The notes under the pieces: model-generated
Seen by the model: the letters and a program-made list of their open reading frames with translations, nothing else
Told to the model about the DNA's origin: nothing
Database searches by the model: none
Part shown: in pieces, positions 19,039 through 28,463 of the stretch
How the letters are laid out: each line of letters opens with the position of its first letter
Numbering within the stretch: the stretch's first letter is position 1
Sequence record: PZ154895.1
DNA length: 64,000 nt
From: a phage
Strand: one strand, 5' to 3'
Position numbers and translations under genes: made by a program

Positions 19039-19364
19039 TGACAGATACGCAACTTTTCGAATATCTTTATTTTTCGCCAAAAACTATTAAAAATAAATTG
19101 GTGAATCATTTTGAAATTTTGGCAAATAACAACGTCTTGAGCGAATTTTATCCTAAGCAATACAAATTACAAAAAGGCGTATTCAAAGGATGCAGAGTTT
19201 TGTGCACTGCTCCTAATGCAAAGTTAATGAATAAAATTCCATATTTTACCATGGAATTTATTGATGGACCTTTTAAAGGACTAATTACCCAAAGTTTAAT
19301 GGCATATGATTCTGAGCCATTTTTAATTAAAGAGCAATCTTGGATAAATTTATTTTCTAATTGA
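19035..19364 (+). CDS. hypothetical protein
   Basis: 109 aa, ATGA coupling with upstream gene. Confidence 0.5.
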   Translation: MMTDTQLFEYLYFSPKTIKNKLVNHFEILANNNVLSEFYPKQYKLQKGVFKGCRVLCTAPNAKLMNKIPYFTMEFIDGPFKGLITQSLMAYDSEPFLIKEQSWINLFSN

Positions 19365-19370
19365 GGTTAT

Positions 19371-19733
19371 ATGAAAGCATATCAAATTCTTGAAGGCACA
19401 CATAAAGGTACTATTTATTTTGAAGACGGTATTCAAGCACGAATTATTGTCTCTAAAACTTTTAAAGAGGACTCTTTTGTAGACCCGGAAATTTTCTACG
19501 GTTTGCATGCCCGTGAAATTGAAATTGAAACACAACCTACAGTTAAAATTGAAGGTGGTCAACACTTGAACGTTAACGTTCTGCGTCGCGAAACTCTGGA
19601 AGATGCAGTTAAGCATCCGGAAAAATATCCGCAGCTGACCATCCGTGTATCAGGTTATGCAGTTCGCTTTAACTCTCTGACTCCGGAACAGCAGCGCGAC
19701 GTTATTGCTCGTACCTTTACTGAGAGTTTGTAA
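19371..19733 (+). CDS. autonomous glycyl radical cofactor (GrcA/YfiD-like)
   Basis: 120 aa; C-terminal glycyl radical motif RVSGYAVRF, same class as T4 Y06I. Confidence 0.75.
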
Positions 19734-19954
19734 TGGCAAAGATAATTATTGAAGGTTCTAAAGATGTGCTAAATGCTTTCGCCGAATGGTTTAGTAATTC
19801 AGGCGAGCAGCAATTTAATGAAGCGTGGACCATGGGTGATATTGATGGAATTTATCCTACGACAGAAATTTCTGTTCAAGGATATGGCATTCATGAACCT
19901 ATTCGTTTAGTTGAATATGATTTATGTACTGGTGAGGAAGTAAAATATGATTGA
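19733..19954 (+). CDS. hypothetical protein
   Basis: 73 aa ORF in vs.x region. Confidence 0.45.
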   Translation: MAKIIIEGSKDVLNAFAEWFSNSGEQQFNEAWTMGDIDGIYPTTEISVQGYGIHEPIRLVEYDLCTGEEVKYD

Positions 19955-20213
19955 AGATATTAAGGGTTATAAGCCACATACTGAAGAGAAAATCGGTAAA
20001 GTGAATGCTATCAAAGACGCTGAAGTTCGTTTAGGACTTATCTTTGATGCTTTATATGATGAATTCTGGGAAGCACTGGATAATTGTGAAGACTGTGAAT
20101 TCGCAAAGAATTATGCTGAAAGCCTCGATCAGTTAACTATTGCTAAAACTAAACTCAAAGAAGTCAGTATGTGGGCTTGTCGCGCAGTGTTTCAACCAGA
20201 GGAAAAATATTAA
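19947..20213 (+). CDS. hypothetical protein (contains CEDCEF Cys pair)
   Basis: 88 aa ORF. Confidence 0.45.
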
Positions 20214-20491
20214 TGGCTCAATTAAGCGCAGGGTTTGGTTATGAGTATTATACTGCCCCTCGTCGTGTATCTGTTGCTCCTAAGAAAATTCAAAGTCTTG
20301 ATGACTTCCAGGAAGTAGTCCGTAAAGCTTTCCAGGACTATGCACGTTATCTTAAAGAAGATTCACAGGACTGTCTCGAAGAAGATGAAATTGCTTACTA
20401 TGAGCAGCGTCTTGAACAGCTCAAAAACCTACATGAGGTTCGTGCAGAAGTTTCAAAGTCTATGAATAAATTGATTAGATTTAAAGAATAA
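20213..20491 (+). CDS. hypothetical protein
   Basis: 92 aa from ATG overlapping upstream stop (TAATG). Confidence 0.45.
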
Positions 20492-20493
20492 CT

Positions 20494-20542
20494 GTTTACT
20501 TTTCCTCTTGACTGTGGTATAATTTTTCTATCAGTTAAGAGG
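20494..20542 (+). promoter_or_regulatory. early promoter upstream of regB (GTTTACT-N17-TATAAT) with flanking imperfect inverted repeat
   Basis: -35 20494-20500, -10 20518-20523; cctctt / aagagg arms. Confidence 0.6.
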
Positions 20543-20550
20543 AGAATAAC

Positions 20551-21012
20551 ATGACTATCAACACAGAAGTTTTTATCCGTCGAAATAAGCTCCGTCGTCA
20601 CTTTGAGTCGGAGTTTCGTCAAATTAACAATGAGATTCGTGAGGCATCAAAAGCAGCAGGGGTCTCATCGTTTCATCTAAAATATTCTCAGCATCTTCTT
20701 GATCGTGCAATTCAACGGGAGATTGATGAGACATATGTTTTTGAATTATTCCATAAAATAAAAGACCATGTTTTAGAAGTTAATGAATTCCTGAGTATGC
20801 CTCCGCGTCCTGACATTGACGAGGATTTTATTGATGGGGTTGAATATCGTCCTGGGCGTTTAGAAATCACAGATGGAAATCTTTGGCTTGGATTTACAGT
20901 TTGTAAACCTAATGCGAAGTTCAAAGACCCGTCGCTTCAATGCAGGATGGCAATTATTAACAGTCGTCGTTTACCAGGAAAGGCTTCTAAAGCAGTAATT
21001 AAAACTCAATGA
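20551..21012 (+). CDS. regB: RegB site-specific endoribonuclease
   Basis: 153 aa beginning MTINTEVFIRRNKLRRHFESEF; matches T4 RegB as recalled. Confidence 0.9.
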   Translation: MTINTEVFIRRNKLRRHFESEFRQINNEIREASKAAGVSSFHLKYSQHLLDRAIQREIDETYVFELFHKIKDHVLEVNEFLSMPPRPDIDEDFIDGVEYRPGRLEITDGNLWLGFTVCKPNAKFKDPSLQCRMAIINSRRLPGKASKAVIKTQ

Positions 21013-21019
21013 GGTAAGC

Positions 21020-21565
21020 ATGAGAAAAGCACTACTCGCTGGTCTATTGGCCATTTCAATGATGGCGCATAGCTCCGAGCATACTTTCAGTAATGTCCAA
21101 CTCGATAACATGCGTTACGCGTATCAATTCGGGGAACAATTTTCTAAGGATGGAAAATATAAAACACACAAAAATATCCACAAGAGCGGATTAGGTCATA
21201 TAATGGCTGCTATTTTATGGCAAGAAAGCTCTGCCGGAGTTAATTTAAAATCTAAACCAAAGCATCATGCCTACGGAATGTTCCAAAATTATTTGCCAAC
21301 TATGCGAGCAAGAGTTAAGGAACTTGGTTATAATATGACTGATGCTGAAATAAAAAGAATGTTGAATAAACGGTCCAATTCAGCTTCCTGGGCGTACATT
21401 GAACTTTCTTATTGGTTAAATATACATAAGGGTGATATAAGAAAAGCTATATCCTCTTATAACTCGGGATGGAATGTTAAAGCTGGTTCTAAATATGCTT
21501 CTGAAGTCCTAGAAAAGGCTAACTACCTTAAAAATAATAAACTTTTGGAAATAGTAAATGACTAA
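21020..21565 (+). CDS. secreted lytic transglycosylase-like protein (vs.1 position)
   Basis: signal peptide; SLT-type motifs WQESS and AYGMFQ. Confidence 0.65.
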   Translation: MRKALLAGLLAISMMAHSSEHTFSNVQLDNMRYAYQFGEQFSKDGKYKTHKNIHKSGLGHIMAAILWQESSAGVNLKSKPKHHAYGMFQNYLPTMRARVKELGYNMTDAEIKRMLNKRSNSASWAYIELSYWLNIHKGDIRKAISSYNSGWNVKAGSKYASEVLEKANYLKNNKLLEIVND

Positions 21566-21899
21566 AATTTTGGTTTTATGTATAGGATTAATTTCATTTT
21601 CTGCGTTAGCAAATACATCATATACTGAAATTAGAGAGTATGTAAACCGTACTGCCGCGGATTATTGCGGGAAAAATAAAGCATGCCAAGCTGAATTTGC
21701 GCAGAAATTAATATATGCATATAAAGACGGAGAAAGAGATAAATCAAGCAGATACAAGAACGATACTTTATTAAAACGATATGCTAAAAAGTGGAATACC
21801 TTAGAATGTTCAGTTGCGGAGGAGAAAGATAAAGCCGCCTGTCATTCAATGGTTGACCGTTTGGTAGATTCTTATAATCGAGGATTGAGTACTAGATGA
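21558..21899 (+). CDS. vs: Vs-like secreted protein (valyl-tRNA synthetase modifier position)
   Basis: 113 aa, signal peptide MTKILVLCIGLISFSALA, synteny with regB and tk. Confidence 0.55.
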   Translation: MTKILVLCIGLISFSALANTSYTEIREYVNRTAADYCGKNKACQAEFAQKLIYAYKDGERDKSSRYKNDTLLKRYAKKWNTLECSVAEEKDKAACHSMVDRLVDSYNRGLSTR

Positions 21900-22375
21900 T
21901 TGTAAAATATATCAAGGGCGATATTGTCGCCCTATTTCTTCAAGGTAATATTATTGCGCACGGGTGCAACTGTTTTCATACTATGGGTTTAGGTGTAGCG
22001 GGTCAATTAGCAAGAGCCTATCCTAAAATTTTAGAAATAGATAAAACCACTACTGAGTACGGTTCTCGTGATAAATTAGGTGATATGTCTATTGTTTTTA
22101 AACATAATCCTGCAGGATTTGGTATATGCTATAACCTGTATACGCAATACGAACCGGGTCCTAATCTTGATTATGGTGCTTTAGTAAACTGCATGATAGA
22201 ATTAAATCTACAGGCAGAAACCCTTTTGTTTAAACCAGTAATTTACATTCCACGCATAGGTTGTGGTATTGCTGGCGGTGATTGGGATAAGGTTTCTAAA
22301 TTAATCGACATGTTTACTCCTGATATTGATTTAATAGTGGTGGATTATGAAAGTACATTACCCGCATCCGTTTGA
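21896..22375 (+). CDS. macro-domain protein (ADP-ribose binding/processing), tk.4 position
   Basis: motifs AHGCNC..GLGVAGQLA and IGCGIAGGDWD resemble the two glycine-rich macro-domain loops. Confidence 0.6.
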   Translation: MIVKYIKGDIVALFLQGNIIAHGCNCFHTMGLGVAGQLARAYPKILEIDKTTTEYGSRDKLGDMSIVFKHNPAGFGICYNLYTQYEPGPNLDYGALVNCMIELNLQAETLLFKPVIYIPRIGCGIAGGDWDKVSKLIDMFTPDIDLIVVDYESTLPASV

Positions 22376-22559
22376 TCCTAAAAATAAAGCGGAAATTATT
22401 CGACACTGGACCGAAACACGAGTAACTAAATGCCCTATAAAAAGTCAACACAATACCGATAAATGGTATATCGGCGAATATGTTGAATATACTTTTATAG
22501 ATAAAAATAAACGTAAACAGCATGTAGAAGAATATTGTTTAAAGGTGCAATGGTTATGA
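22347..22559 (+). CDS. hypothetical protein
   Basis: 70 aa ORF. Confidence 0.4.
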   Translation: MKVHYPHPFDPKNKAEIIRHWTETRVTKCPIKSQHNTDKWYIGEYVEYTFIDKNKRKQHVEEYCLKVQWL

Positions 22560-22741
22560 GTCTAAGCATTAGTCAGAAAAGTAGATTATTTGAGCTTATT
22601 CATGAGCTTTTGGATGAGCATACAGAAGCAAACACCTTTTATGATGAATACGGCCCGCTATCTCCCGAACAGCAGGAAGAATTTGCTGATCGGTTTGATA
22701 AGAAAGAAAATGAATTAATAGCTTATGTGAATACGCTTTAA
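22556..22741 (+). CDS. hypothetical acidic protein
   Basis: 61 aa, ATGA coupling. Confidence 0.4.
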   Translation: MSLSISQKSRLFELIHELLDEHTEANTFYDEYGPLSPEQQEEFADRFDKKENELIAYVNTL

Positions 22742-22750
22742 GAAGGTGAT

Positions 22751-23332
22751 ATGGCGAGTTTAATTTTTACTTATGCAGCAATGAATGCTGGAAAATCTGC
22801 TTCTCTTTTGACTGCTGCACATAATTATAAAGAACGTGGAATGAGTGTATTAGTTCTTAAGCCTGCTATTGATACTCGCGATTCTGTCTGTGAAGTCGTT
22901 TCTCGCATTGGAATTAAGCAGGAAGCGAATATTATTACGGATGATATGGATATTTTTGAGTTCTATAAATGGGCTGAAGCACAAAAAGATATTCATTGTG
23001 TATTTGTAGATGAAGCCCAGTTTTTAAAAACTGAACAGGTGCATCAATTAAGCCGAATTGTTGATACATATAATGTTCCTGTTATGGCTTATGGACTAAG
23101 GACTGATTTCGCTGGAAAATTATTTGAAGGTTCTAAAGAACTTTTGGCGATTGCAGATAAACTTATTGAACTAAAAGCAGTTTGTCATTGTGGTAAAAAA
23201 GCTATTATGACAGCTCGATTAATGGAAGATGGAACACCAGTTAAAGAGGGTAATCAAATCTGTATTGGTGATGAAATTTATGTTTCTTTGTGTAGAAAAC
23301 ATTGGAATGAATTAACTAAAAAGCTCGGTTAG
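22751..23332 (+). CDS. tk: thymidine kinase
   Basis: 193 aa; P-loop AMNAGKSAS; C-terminal Cys pairs (CHCGKKA, ICIGDE). Confidence 0.92.
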   Translation: MASLIFTYAAMNAGKSASLLTAAHNYKERGMSVLVLKPAIDTRDSVCEVVSRIGIKQEANIITDDMDIFEFYKWAEAQKDIHCVFVDEAQFLKTEQVHQLSRIVDTYNVPVMAYGLRTDFAGKLFEGSKELLAIADKLIELKAVCHCGKKAIMTARLMEDGTPVKEGNQICIGDEIYVSLCRKHWNELTKKLG

Positions 23333-23341
23333 TGCAAAAGT

Positions 23342-23349
23342 TATAAATA
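23342..23349 (+). promoter_or_regulatory. late promoter TATAAATA upstream of rI region
   Basis: exact TATAAATA 26 nt upstream of ORF 23375. Confidence 0.5.
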
Positions 23350-23374
23350 GGTTTATCTAACTAAAGGGGTATAT

Positions 23375-23587
23375 ATGCTACAATTAACTGAAAAGCAACT
23401 TCGCAATCTTACTGTTCTTCAATTAGATGAAATTCGTAGGGAAGTTGGAAATATCATTTCAGCTTTGCGTCGAGAAGTATCACTCAACCAATCTCCGGCA
23501 GACTATACTAGATTGCGAAATTTTGAAAAATACCTTGATAAAGTTAAGGCCGTGCATCGGCATAAAGTAAATACAGGACAAAAATGA
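23375..23587 (+). CDS. hypothetical protein adjacent to rI
   Basis: 70 aa; late promoter TATAAATA at 23342-23349. Confidence 0.5.
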
Positions 23588-23599
23588 TAGGAGGCCTTT

Positions 23600-23893
23600 A
23601 TGGCCTTAAAAGCAACGGCATTATTTGCCATGCTAGGATTAGCGTTTGCTTTATCTCCACCAATTGAAGCGAATGTCGATCCTCATTTTGATAAATTTAT
23701 GGAATCTGGTATTAGACATGTTTATATGCTTTTTGAAAATAAAAGCGTAGAATCATCTGAACAGTTCTATAGTTTTATGCGAACGACCTATAAAAATGAC
23801 CCGTGCTCTTCCGATTTTGAATGTATAGAGCGAGGCGCGGAGATGGCACAATCATACGCTAGAATTATGAACATTAAATTGGAGACTGAATGA
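23600..23893 (+). CDS. rI: lysis inhibition regulator RI
   Basis: 97 aa with N-terminal signal-anchor MALKATALFAMLGLAFALSPPIEA; matches T4 RI as recalled. Confidence 0.88.
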   Translation: MALKATALFAMLGLAFALSPPIEANVDPHFDKFMESGIRHVYMLFENKSVESSEQFYSFMRTTYKNDPCSSDFECIERGAEMAQSYARIMNIKLETE

Positions 23894-27978: not shown

Positions 27979-28269
27979 ATGCATATTTTAATGCAATGCC
28001 TTGGCAACAAAATTAATGATTTTAATCATAAGCGTGTTAATGATTACATTAAAGACAAACTTGAGATTAAAGACATACTTTTTAGAGGACTTACAATAGA
28101 GGAAGTGCTATCTTATAAGTTTGAAGTTAATAGGAGAATCAAATTTAAAAGAATAACTTCCTTTAGCAGTGAGTCTCATATAGCTGAAACGTTTGCAGCA
28201 GAACGCTATATGACTAATGCTTTAGTAGTGTTAAAAATGCAAACGTTTTCGACTATTCGACTGCTATGA
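27979..28269 (+). CDS. hypothetical protein
   Basis: 96 aa, early promoter upstream. Confidence 0.45.
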   Translation: MHILMQCLGNKINDFNHKRVNDYIKDKLEIKDILFRGLTIEEVLSYKFEVNRRIKFKRITSFSSESHIAETFAAERYMTNALVVLKMQTFSTIRLL

Positions 28270-28463
28270 TTGACATTTTAGAAAATTTAATCGCAATTGA
28301 AGAATCTGGCCAAACTGACGATGATAAGCTTAACAAGCTTTATGATAATCTTTGTATGGTAGATTATGAAAGAGAGTTTTTACTGCCAACTAATTCTGAG
28401 TTAATAGTTAAAAACATATATTTTGATAGCAAAAAGAACATGCATATAGTAGAAATGGAATAA
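28266..28463 (+). CDS. hypothetical acidic protein
   Basis: 65 aa. Confidence 0.45.
   Translation: MIDILENLIAIEESGQTDDDKLNKLYDNLCMVDYEREFLLPTNSELIVKNIYFDSKKNMHIVEME

Follow-up and report, generated by a model that had tools for sequence, protein, structure and literature searches.

A diverged allele of T4 tk.4 (adfM) encodes a stand-alone macrodomain that probably strips ADP-ribose from phage DNA

The 64,000-nucleotide stretch of phage DNA analysed here (sequence record PZ154895.1, referred to below as the window) carries on its + strand, at 21896..22375, a gene for a 159-residue protein that, judged by its position and its sequence, is an orthologue of T4 tk.4, now called adfM, in the form of a diverged allele. 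The product, a macrodomain that stands alone as a single domain, belongs to the ALC1-like class together with TARG1, DarG, SCO6735 and Poa1p, and is best described as a member of a separate, mostly phage-borne branch that would resemble SCO6735 in its working. The protein is probably a hydrolase that strips the ADP-ribose attached by DarT2 to thymidines in single-stranded phage DNA. The DarTG2 genetics concern the 57%-identical T4 orthologue and the biochemistry concerns SCO6735, and for the window allele we infer the same substrate as well as the catalytic details.

Background

DarTG systems ADP-ribosylate phage DNA and thereby block replication. T-even phages appear to carry layered erasers of these marks, which comprise AdfA, the NADAR enzyme AdfN, directed at guanosine modification, and the macrodomain protein Tk.4/AdfM, directed at thymidine modification. 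When a T4 transposon library was examined by HIDEN-SEQ on a DarTG2 host, tk.4 was the sole significant hit, a clean T4 tk.4 knockout was found to be sensitive to DarTG2, and the gene was renamed adfM, for anti-DarT factor Macrodomain (bioRxiv 10.1101/2025.11.20.689424). The HIDEN-SEQ authors proposed, on a genetic basis and without biochemistry, that the protein removes ADP-ribose from DNA (bioRxiv 10.1101/2025.11.20.689424). Moreover, neither adfN nor adfA is needed for the resistance of T2 and T4 to DarTG2 (PMC11825919), which fits the requirement for tk.4. The preliminary description of the window gene had offered the countering of ADP-ribosylating defence as one of several roles, and this option is backed by the DarTG2 sensitivity of the T4 tk.4 knockout.

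Gene position and orthology

The window is a segment of a Tequatrovirus (T4-like) genome in an orientation that is the reverse of the T4 map, and over 24 kb it shares about 96% identity with phage HY01. The macrodomain gene begins with an ATG at 21896 and ends with a TGA stop codon at 22373-22375, exactly as first described. Its start overlaps the stop codon of vs in the sequence ATGA (21896-21899), and a Shine-Dalgarno-like GAGGA/GAG lies 6-12 nt 5' of the ATG. The local order, regB, vs.1, vs, the macrodomain ORF, tk.3, a tk.2-like ORF, tk, rI.1 and rI, is that of T4. The vs gene, which encodes the valyl-tRNA synthetase modifier (21558..21899, + strand), specifies a product 96.5% identical to T4 Vs. 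On the other side, the tk.3 homologue (22347..22559, + strand; 70 aa, DUF7202, Pfam PF23832, E=5e-37) is 71% identical to T4 Tk.3, and has 29 nt in common with the 3' end of the macrodomain gene. It is followed by the tk.2-like ORF (22535..22741, + strand; 68 aa, DUF7438, Pfam PF24219, E=3.4e-16), which is 44% identical to T4 Tk.2, and by the thymidine kinase gene tk (22751..23332, + strand), whose product is 99.5% identical to T4 Tk. The gene had initially been placed next to vs and tk; the first of these neighbours is indeed adjacent, to the point that its stop codon overlaps the start of the gene, while tk is set apart by tk.3 and the tk.2-like ORF.

In T4, the slot between vs and tk.3 is held by tk.4 (NP_049723). 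The window protein aligned with T4 Tk.4 over its full length, without gaps, at 57% identity, and it is this full-length similarity, combined with the conserved location in a genome of Tequatrovirus type, flanked by vs and tk.3, that places the two genes in one orthologous group. The proteins are of the same length class, T4 Tk.4 having 155 residues against 159 in the window protein, which has four additional C-terminal residues encoded in the overlap with tk.3. The residues that are invariant across the family, G8, H22, G23, N25, C26, G33, A35, D49, G62, N80, Y82, Q84, P119, G122, G124 and W130, are common to both. The preliminary description had missed the identity with T4 tk.4, as well as the glutamine that replaces the catalytic lysine of TARG1 and DarG.

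The annotation of the gene is uneven. A1pp is an older name for the macro domain. In the T4 reference record tk.4 appears as 'phosphatase; contains A1pp phosphatase motif', and the name given to PHROG 335 is 'phosphatase'. Some GenBank records call the 159-aa allele of the window type 'macro domain protein' (e.g. QHR64662.1, phage teqdroes), and others label the T4-type allele 'Poa1p-like family protein'. Since its annotation as macro/A1pp is of long standing, the macro-domain nature of the gene was already known, as was, from the preprint, the anti-DarTG2 role of the T4 orthologue. As a separate matter of annotation, a ModA-like protein of 161 aa gave no match in a Pfam search and was related to T4 ModA and ModB by BLASTP.

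Fold and family

The Pfam Macro profile PF01661 matched the window protein with 30.9 bits, where the gathering threshold of Pfam is 22 (E=2.8e-7), residues 22-136 corresponding to profile positions 2-117 of 118, that is, 116 of the 118 positions. The significant matches in a plain sequence search of the PDB were all macrodomains (BT1257, Poa1p, SCO6735, DarG and TARG1), and a family profile built on 51 homologues matched the PDB sequences with E values from 1e-18 through 1e-11 (1e-18 for BT1257, 3e-17 for TARG1). Homologues were present in 2,746 of 50,697 phage records searched with tblastn. An AlphaFold2 model calculated from a 50-sequence alignment, from which the T4 sequence had been left out, had a mean pLDDT of 93.3 and a pTM of 0.88, with disorder confined to the last five residues, and the predicted structure was an alpha/beta macro fold with a central beta-sheet. 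The assignment to the macro domains, made initially from two glycine-rich loops, both of which were found, is thus borne out by the profile match and by the predicted structure; a predicted structure without a macro fold would, according to the preliminary description, have refuted it.

When the model was compared with the PDB by Foldseek, TARG1, Poa1p, BT1257, DarG and SCO6735 were matched with a probability of 1.00 and TM values of 0.7-0.84, and after a marked drop came coronavirus, alphavirus, PARP and MacroD-type macrodomains, none of them above 13.7. Loop 1, with its Asn and G-x-G, and the glycine-rich loop 2, which line the ADP-ribose cleft, were recognisable in the alignment of the 51 homologues. 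The nearest neighbours were TARG1, DarG, SCO6735/BT1257 and Poa1p, and not the MacroD, PARG or viral Mac1 types, a pattern that places the protein in the ALC1-like/TARG1-like class.

Human TARG1 (OARD1) and yeast Poa1p were the top Foldseek matches, with TM values of 0.73-0.84, and the loop-1 histidine is common to all three proteins. Both relatives are eukaryotic, TARG1 acting on protein and DNA and Poa1p on a metabolite. The rank of Poa1p among the best sequence and structure matches and the 'phosphatase' labels carried by T4 Tk.4 (through its A1pp motif) and by PHROG 335 would suit a hydrolase of small ADP-ribose derivatives, either a Poa1p-like ADP-ribose-1''-phosphate phosphatase or an O-acetyl-ADP-ribose deacetylase, that clears NAD-derived metabolites and does not repair DNA. 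The Poa1p residues that were mutated in deposited structures, H23 and S30, also align with H22 (identical) and T29 (a conservative replacement), residues that relatives other than phosphatases have as well. We regard a small-molecule substrate as improbable, because the sole phenotype known for an orthologue is sensitivity to DarTG2, which modifies DNA, and because the 'phosphatase' names are transferred annotations and not assays. Furthermore, Appr-1''-p is a by-product of RNA repair of the Tpt1/KptA type, a pathway foreign to the T4-type RNA repair by Pnk/Rnl1, which does not use it.

The active site

The loop 1 region, H22-A39 (HGCNCFHTMGLGVAGQLA; 21959..22012, + strand), contains H22, C24, N25, C26 and G31-x-G33 and, at residues 23-39, the first glycine-rich stretch, GCNCFHTMGLGVAGQLA. 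In the family alignments H22, N25 and C26 were invariant and C24 nearly so. N25 aligned with the conserved macrodomain Asn (N27 in SCO6735, N23 in PhiKZ AdfM), and H22 aligned with H24 of SCO6735 and H23 of Poa1p. The second motif, N80-L-Y-T-Q84 (22133..22147, + strand), was positioned by profile alignment to TARG1 and by multiple alignments with DarG, PhiKZ gp104, SCO6735 and BT1257. Its counterparts are Y-L-I-T-K84 in TARG1, N-F-P-T-K80 in DarG and M-F-P-T-K in PhiKZ gp104. Q84 therefore sits at the position of the catalytic lysine, K84 in TARG1 and K80 in DarG, and is equivalent to Gln85 of SCO6735. Both N80 and Q84 were invariant in 51 of 51 aligned homologues, T4 Tk.4 included.

Loop 2, the glycine-rich diphosphate-binding loop P119-D131 (PRIGCGIAGGDWD; 22250..22288, + strand), includes the second glycine-rich stretch, IGCGIAGGDWD, at residues 121-131 (nt 22256-22288). 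Among the 51 homologues, P119, G122, G124 and W130 were invariant and A126, G127 and G128 at least 90% conserved, and the pattern PRIGCGLAGGxW is common to SCO6735 and BT1257. The second catalytic residue of TARG1, D125, aligned with A126 of the window protein in the profile alignment. H22, C24, N25, N80, Q84, P119, I121, G122, G124 and W130 were invariant when the phage proteins were considered together with SCO6735 and BT1257; K60 was nearly invariant in the phage family and missing from SCO6735 and BT1257. The preliminary description had made its assignment depend on conservation of the loop residues, and H22, N25, G31, G33, G122, G124 and W130 were invariant or nearly so in the 51 homologues.

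Since the counterparts of Gln85, Asn27 and His24 of SCO6735 are all present and the catalytic lysine is replaced, the best guess is a mechanism that does not require lysine, and catalysis is probably of the SCO6735 type, unlike that of TARG1 and DarG, whose chemistry depends on the lysine. The replacements of K84 by Q84 and of D125 by A126 remove both catalytic residues of TARG1 and could be taken to mean that the protein is a non-catalytic ADP-ribose binder, which would either sequester an immune signal derived from NAD or inhibit DarT2 through binding and not through hydrolysis. A precedent for inhibition by binding is the catalytically dead Q85A mutant of SCO6735, which still inhibits DarT through an interaction (PMC9411070). 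Nevertheless, a pure binder is the reading to which we give the least credence, because the whole family has, without variation, the Gln/Asn/His constellation of SCO6735, a very active enzyme, and because the window protein is without an extra toxin-binding domain, its 159 residues aligning with positions 2-142 of a DarG model of 338 positions. The analysis likewise yielded no support for the countering of NAD-derived defence signalling, which had been among the roles first suggested.

Comparison with characterised macrodomains

SCO6735 rapidly removes thymidine-linked ADP-ribose from DNA, is inactive on guanosine-linked ADP-ribose and rescues DarT toxicity (PMC9411070). Its activity was wholly lost in the Q85A and Q85E mutants and nearly wholly lost in N27S, and in the mechanism proposed for it, Asn27 locks Gln85, which in turn positions the distal ribose, and a water held by the backbone starts catalysis (PMC9411070). 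The window protein has the residues that mark the Gln-type subclass of SCO6735 and BT1257, Q84, N25 and H22 being equivalent to Gln85, Asn27 and His24, and is 26-29% identical to these two proteins. It also differs from SCO6735. First, it does not have the five-residue extension by which the 'mobile loop' of SCO6735 exceeds those of DarG and TARG1, the stated hallmark of the SCO6735 subclass, there being a gap of five columns after Q84-Y85 in the window protein and all phage homologues. Second, the lysines that position DNA in SCO6735, K34 and K89, have no counterpart in the phage proteins; K34 aligns with L32 and K89 falls in the five-residue insertion that the phage proteins lack. SCO6735 is, in addition, a cellular protein of Streptomyces coelicolor, and BT1257, of the same Gln-type subgroup, is a protein of Bacteroides thetaiotaomicron, whereas the window protein is a phage gene product. 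We know of no DarT role in S. coelicolor.

Several observations led us to reject membership of the DarG family, 1) the NCBIfam DarG equivalog model NF048014 gave 26.4 bits against a cut-off of 250, with positions 2-142 of 338 aligned, 2) the PADLOC DarG model gave 26.6 bits, 3) the catalytic K80 of DarG, in the motif FPTK, corresponds to the invariant Q84, in the motif LYTQ, of the window protein, and 4) the protein ends at residue 159, with no C-terminal DarT-binding domain, and the gene has vs and tk.3 as its neighbours, with no adjacent darT. From these sequence features the window protein is classed as other than a DarG.

The name AdfM was also given, independently, to gp104 of phage PhiKZ (Cell Reports 2026, PMC13309987), which removes DarT2-made ADP-ribose from DNA in vitro (PMC13309987). 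The two proteins are not to be equated. PhiKZ gp104 is of the true DarG type, with 90.7 bits to the DarG of M. tuberculosis and the FPTK motif, and its similarity to the window protein was almost undetectable by BLASTP (E=0.002 over 23 residues). The name AdfM thus covers two different macrodomain subfamilies, a coincidence of two independent papers.

Proposed mechanism and substrate

The macrodomain protein would be made from the early/middle vs-tk transcription unit, its start codon overlapping the vs stop. It would bind the ADP-ribose moiety in the cleft between loop 1 (H22-A39) and loop 2 (P119-D131) and hydrolyse the N-glycosidic bond that joins ADP-ribose to the thymidine bases modified by the host toxin DarT2 on single-stranded phage DNA. 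Gln84, held by Asn25, would position the distal ribose, and the chemistry would be carried out by a water molecule activated by the backbone. With the ADP-ribose removed, replication would be restored and the phage would escape the abortive DarTG2 defence.

Some features of the window protein count against this reading. As many as 43% of the residues differ from those of the T4 protein that was tested, loop 2 included, and the protein is missing not only the counterparts of K34 and K89 of SCO6735 but also the lysine that is essential in DarG and in PhiKZ AdfM.

The relatives of the window protein also accept other substrates. SCO6735 and TARG1 hydrolyse Glu/Asp-linked protein ADPr, although SCO6735 favours DNA over protein in competition (PMC9411070), and TARG1, DarG and SCO6735 all strip uracil-linked ADPr from ssRNA (PMC13036486). 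Because the enzyme class is promiscuous in this way, the physiological substrate could be broader or different, and the phage protein may have RNA and protein activities alongside the DNA activity. None of the rival explanations considered here has direct support for the phage protein.

One of these is that the main substrate is ADP-ribosylated RNA, with uracil- or phosphate-linked ADP-ribose, the protein shielding phage transcripts from RNA-targeting ADP-ribosyltransferases and repairing DNA only secondarily. The activity of the closest characterised relatives, TARG1, DarG and SCO6735, on uracil-ADPr ssRNA fits such a role, as does the neighbourhood of the gene, where RNA-related functions (regB and vs) abound. 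We think it unlikely, since the T4 phenotype is directed against DarT2, a modifier of DNA thymidine, and since we know of no phage-relevant uracil-ADPr writer in E. coli. In addition, T-even phages that possess tk.4 are still sensitive to the mRNA ADP-ribosyltransferase system CmdTAC (PMC11618068); the CmdTAC paper mentions macrodomains in its reference list only.

Another is that the protein erases or tunes the ADP-ribosylation of proteins, either the marks placed by the phage enzymes Alt, ModA and ModB on RNA polymerase, S1 and EF-Tu or those of host transferases. T-even phages do encode several ADP-ribosyltransferases (modA and modB in T4), and the cleavage of Glu/Asp-linked protein ADPr by SCO6735 and TARG1 provides a chemical precedent. 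However, Alt, ModA and ModB modify arginine, and the arginine-ADPr linkage is, to our knowledge, not one that macrodomains of the TARG1 class cleave. The preference of SCO6735 for DNA also weighs against this explanation, as does the T4 screen, in which tk.4 was reported solely as a DarTG2-host-specific hit, and we consider a protein substrate very improbable. Regulation of phage-induced ADP-ribosylation had been proposed at the outset, and the analysis found no support for an effect on the phage's own Alt/ModA/ModB modifications. The removal of ADP-ribose from thymidine in phage DNA is retained below as the preferred function.

If this is correct, the identity of the gene with tk.4/adfM gives a concrete function to a gene that is labelled 'phosphatase' or 'hypothetical protein' in many of the phage records examined, and it bears on the host range to be expected of therapeutic T4-like phages where E. 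coli strains carry DarTG2. What is of residual value is the Gln-type, in place of Lys-type, active site in a minimal scaffold, and the existence of two deeply diverged alleles, which might differ in specificity, in otherwise near-identical genomes; the basic picture is unchanged by either.

Two diverged alleles

The macrodomain gene lies in a mosaic cassette that is hyperdivergent relative to T4 (21934..22750, + strand) and comprises most of tk.4, tk.3 and the tk.2-like ORF, bordered on the right by tk. The cassette has no counterpart of T4 tk.1. Of 155 aligned residues, 87-88 are shared by the window protein and the T2, T4 and T6 proteins (57%), among which those of T2 and T4 are identical and that of T6 differs at two residues. 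The flanking proteins, in contrast, are 96-100% identical to those of T4 (99-100% for RegB, Vs.1, Tk, RI.1 and RI.-1, about 97% for Vs and RI). The nucleotide identity to T4 was 95-100% outside the cassette, up to about 21930, fell stepwise to 92% and 85% in two successive 60-nt blocks that reach to about 22004 and then to 0-77% (about 22005-22750), and was again about 98% at the start of tk. The lowest value belongs to a gapped stretch just 5' of tk, where T4 tk.1 is without a counterpart.

Synonymous divergence was saturated in the cassette, with a dS of about 2.1 for codons 40-155 of tk.4 and about 2.05 for tk.3, compared with 0.09-0.11 in tk and vs.1. This difference between a dS of about 2 in the cassette and about 0.1 in its flanks is the mark of an old allele that was imported by recombination. 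The dN/dS between the two alleles was about 0.25-0.3, which indicates that both are under purifying selection. Rapid evolution in situ, recent hypermutation and decay were rejected as causes of the 57% identity on account of the saturated dS and the low dN/dS.

Both forms are widespread. Matches of at least 90% identity to the window-type allele were present in 312 phage records, and the T4-type allele was found in 224 phage records, with another 159 at 80-90%. They differ in loop 2, which reads IGCGIAGGDW in the window protein and IGAGIGKGNW in the T4/T2/T6 type. It is the window sequence, GCGIAGGDW, that follows the pattern of the wider family and of SCO6735/BT1257, and the T4-type GAGIGKGNW that is deviant.

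A more far-reaching interpretation, which we put forward tentatively and hold to be doubtful, is that Tequatrovirus maintains at least two anciently diverged alleles that are exchanged by recombination and possibly differ in function. On this view the locus would serve as a cassette in an arms race and not as a single conserved counter-defence. The alleles might fit different DarT2 variants or different substrates, DNA thymidine as against RNA uracil, or, alternatively, one of them might evade a host factor by which the other is sensed or inhibited. The protein would also represent a natural, minimal DNA de-ADP-ribosylase of the Gln type, independent of the catalytic lysine, that has neither the mobile loop nor the DNA-binding lysines found in SCO6735.

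Transcription signals

A promoter scan of 19300-23700 found 14 sigma-70-like sites where 15.3 were expected and was therefore uninformative. A pattern scan located a terminator-like, GC-rich hairpin followed by a T-rich tail at 21915..21933 on the + strand, within codons 7-13 of the macrodomain gene. Its minimum free energy was -12.9 kcal/mol, and the stem was identical in T4, T2, T6, teqdroes and ECO07P3. The first mismatches to T4 come directly after this conserved hairpin. In one GenBank record, the features listed under the match to tk.4 include a 'terminator'.

The divergent tk.4-tk cassette

Alignment with T4 showed a drop in identity over a block of ~800 bp (21934-22750) that comprised most of tk.4, the macrodomain gene, together with tk.3 and a tk.2-like ORF, while the surrounding sequence was 95-100% identical to T4. 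Within the block, identity was ~90% at the left edge and fell stepwise to 0-77% past ~22005, reaching its minimum in a gapped stretch preceding tk. The dS relative to T4 was ~2 inside the block and ~0.1 outside. Two small plus-strand ORFs that follow the macrodomain gene matched Pfam DUF7202 (tk.3, 22347-22559, E=5e-37) and DUF7438 (the tk.2-like ORF, 22535-22741, E=3.4e-16); they lie within the divergent cassette and co-vary with the macrodomain allele. Comparison with T4 revealed no counterpart of T4 tk.1 in the block. Other phages with the window-type tk.4 allele, such as teqdroes, carry an extra ~370 bp and one additional small ORF ahead of tk; the interval between tk.4 and tk is thus a mosaic cassette that varies between phages.

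The onset of the similarity decay coincided exactly with a GC-rich 8-bp hairpin followed by a T-rich tail (21915-21933, plus strand; AGGGCGAtatTGTCGCCCT, -12.9 kcal/mol), located within the macrodomain gene at codons 7-13. The hairpin stem was unchanged across T4, T2, T6, teqdroes and ECO07P3, and a "terminator" was one of the features somewhere under the tk.4 match of one GenBank record. The hairpin could serve as an attenuator following vs or, alternatively, mark a recombination border.

Loop 2 and the two AdfM proteins

The window allele retained the consensus sequence of loop 2, the glycine-rich diphosphate-binding loop (IGCGIAGGDW), which is common to >90% of homologues, whereas the experimentally studied T4/T2/T6 allele has the non-consensus sequence IGAGIGKGNW (residues 121-130 of T4 Tk.4; L001:4423-4890, minus strand). 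The Gln-type relatives SCO6735 and BT1257 have the same consensus as the window allele, unlike T4 Tk.4. The lysine of the T4 Tk.4 loop aligned with R126 of human TARG1.

The name AdfM was coined independently for two macrodomains of different subfamilies (bioRxiv 10.1101/2025.11.20.689424; PMC13309987). T4 Tk.4 is Gln-type and the evidence is genetic only (bioRxiv 10.1101/2025.11.20.689424), while PhiKZ gp104 is Lys-type and resembles the antitoxin DarG, with biochemistry reported (PMC13309987). Passing annotation between the two proteins would blur a real mechanistic difference.

Other observations

A paralogue of ModA and ModB, two ADP-ribosyltransferases of T4, was found in split form on the plus strand at 27979-28463. 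The 161-aa protein, uninterrupted in phages ECO07P3 and T2, was 28-30% identical to ModA and ModB by BLASTP (E=5e-10 and 4e-15, respectively), and the R, S-x-S and E-x-E motifs were visible; a Pfam search with it gave no match. In the window copy, a 1-nt deletion in an A-run at 28233-28237 (A5, not A6) resulted in ORFs of 96 and 65 aa, reflecting either a real frameshift or pseudogene, or else a homopolymer sequencing error.

In the distant Vibrio phage Dax (MT459144.1, 106831-107244), the macrodomain homologue adjoins a ribose-phosphate pyrophosphokinase gene; this neighbor hints that some phages link the family not with the vs-tk context but with NAD or nucleotide salvage.
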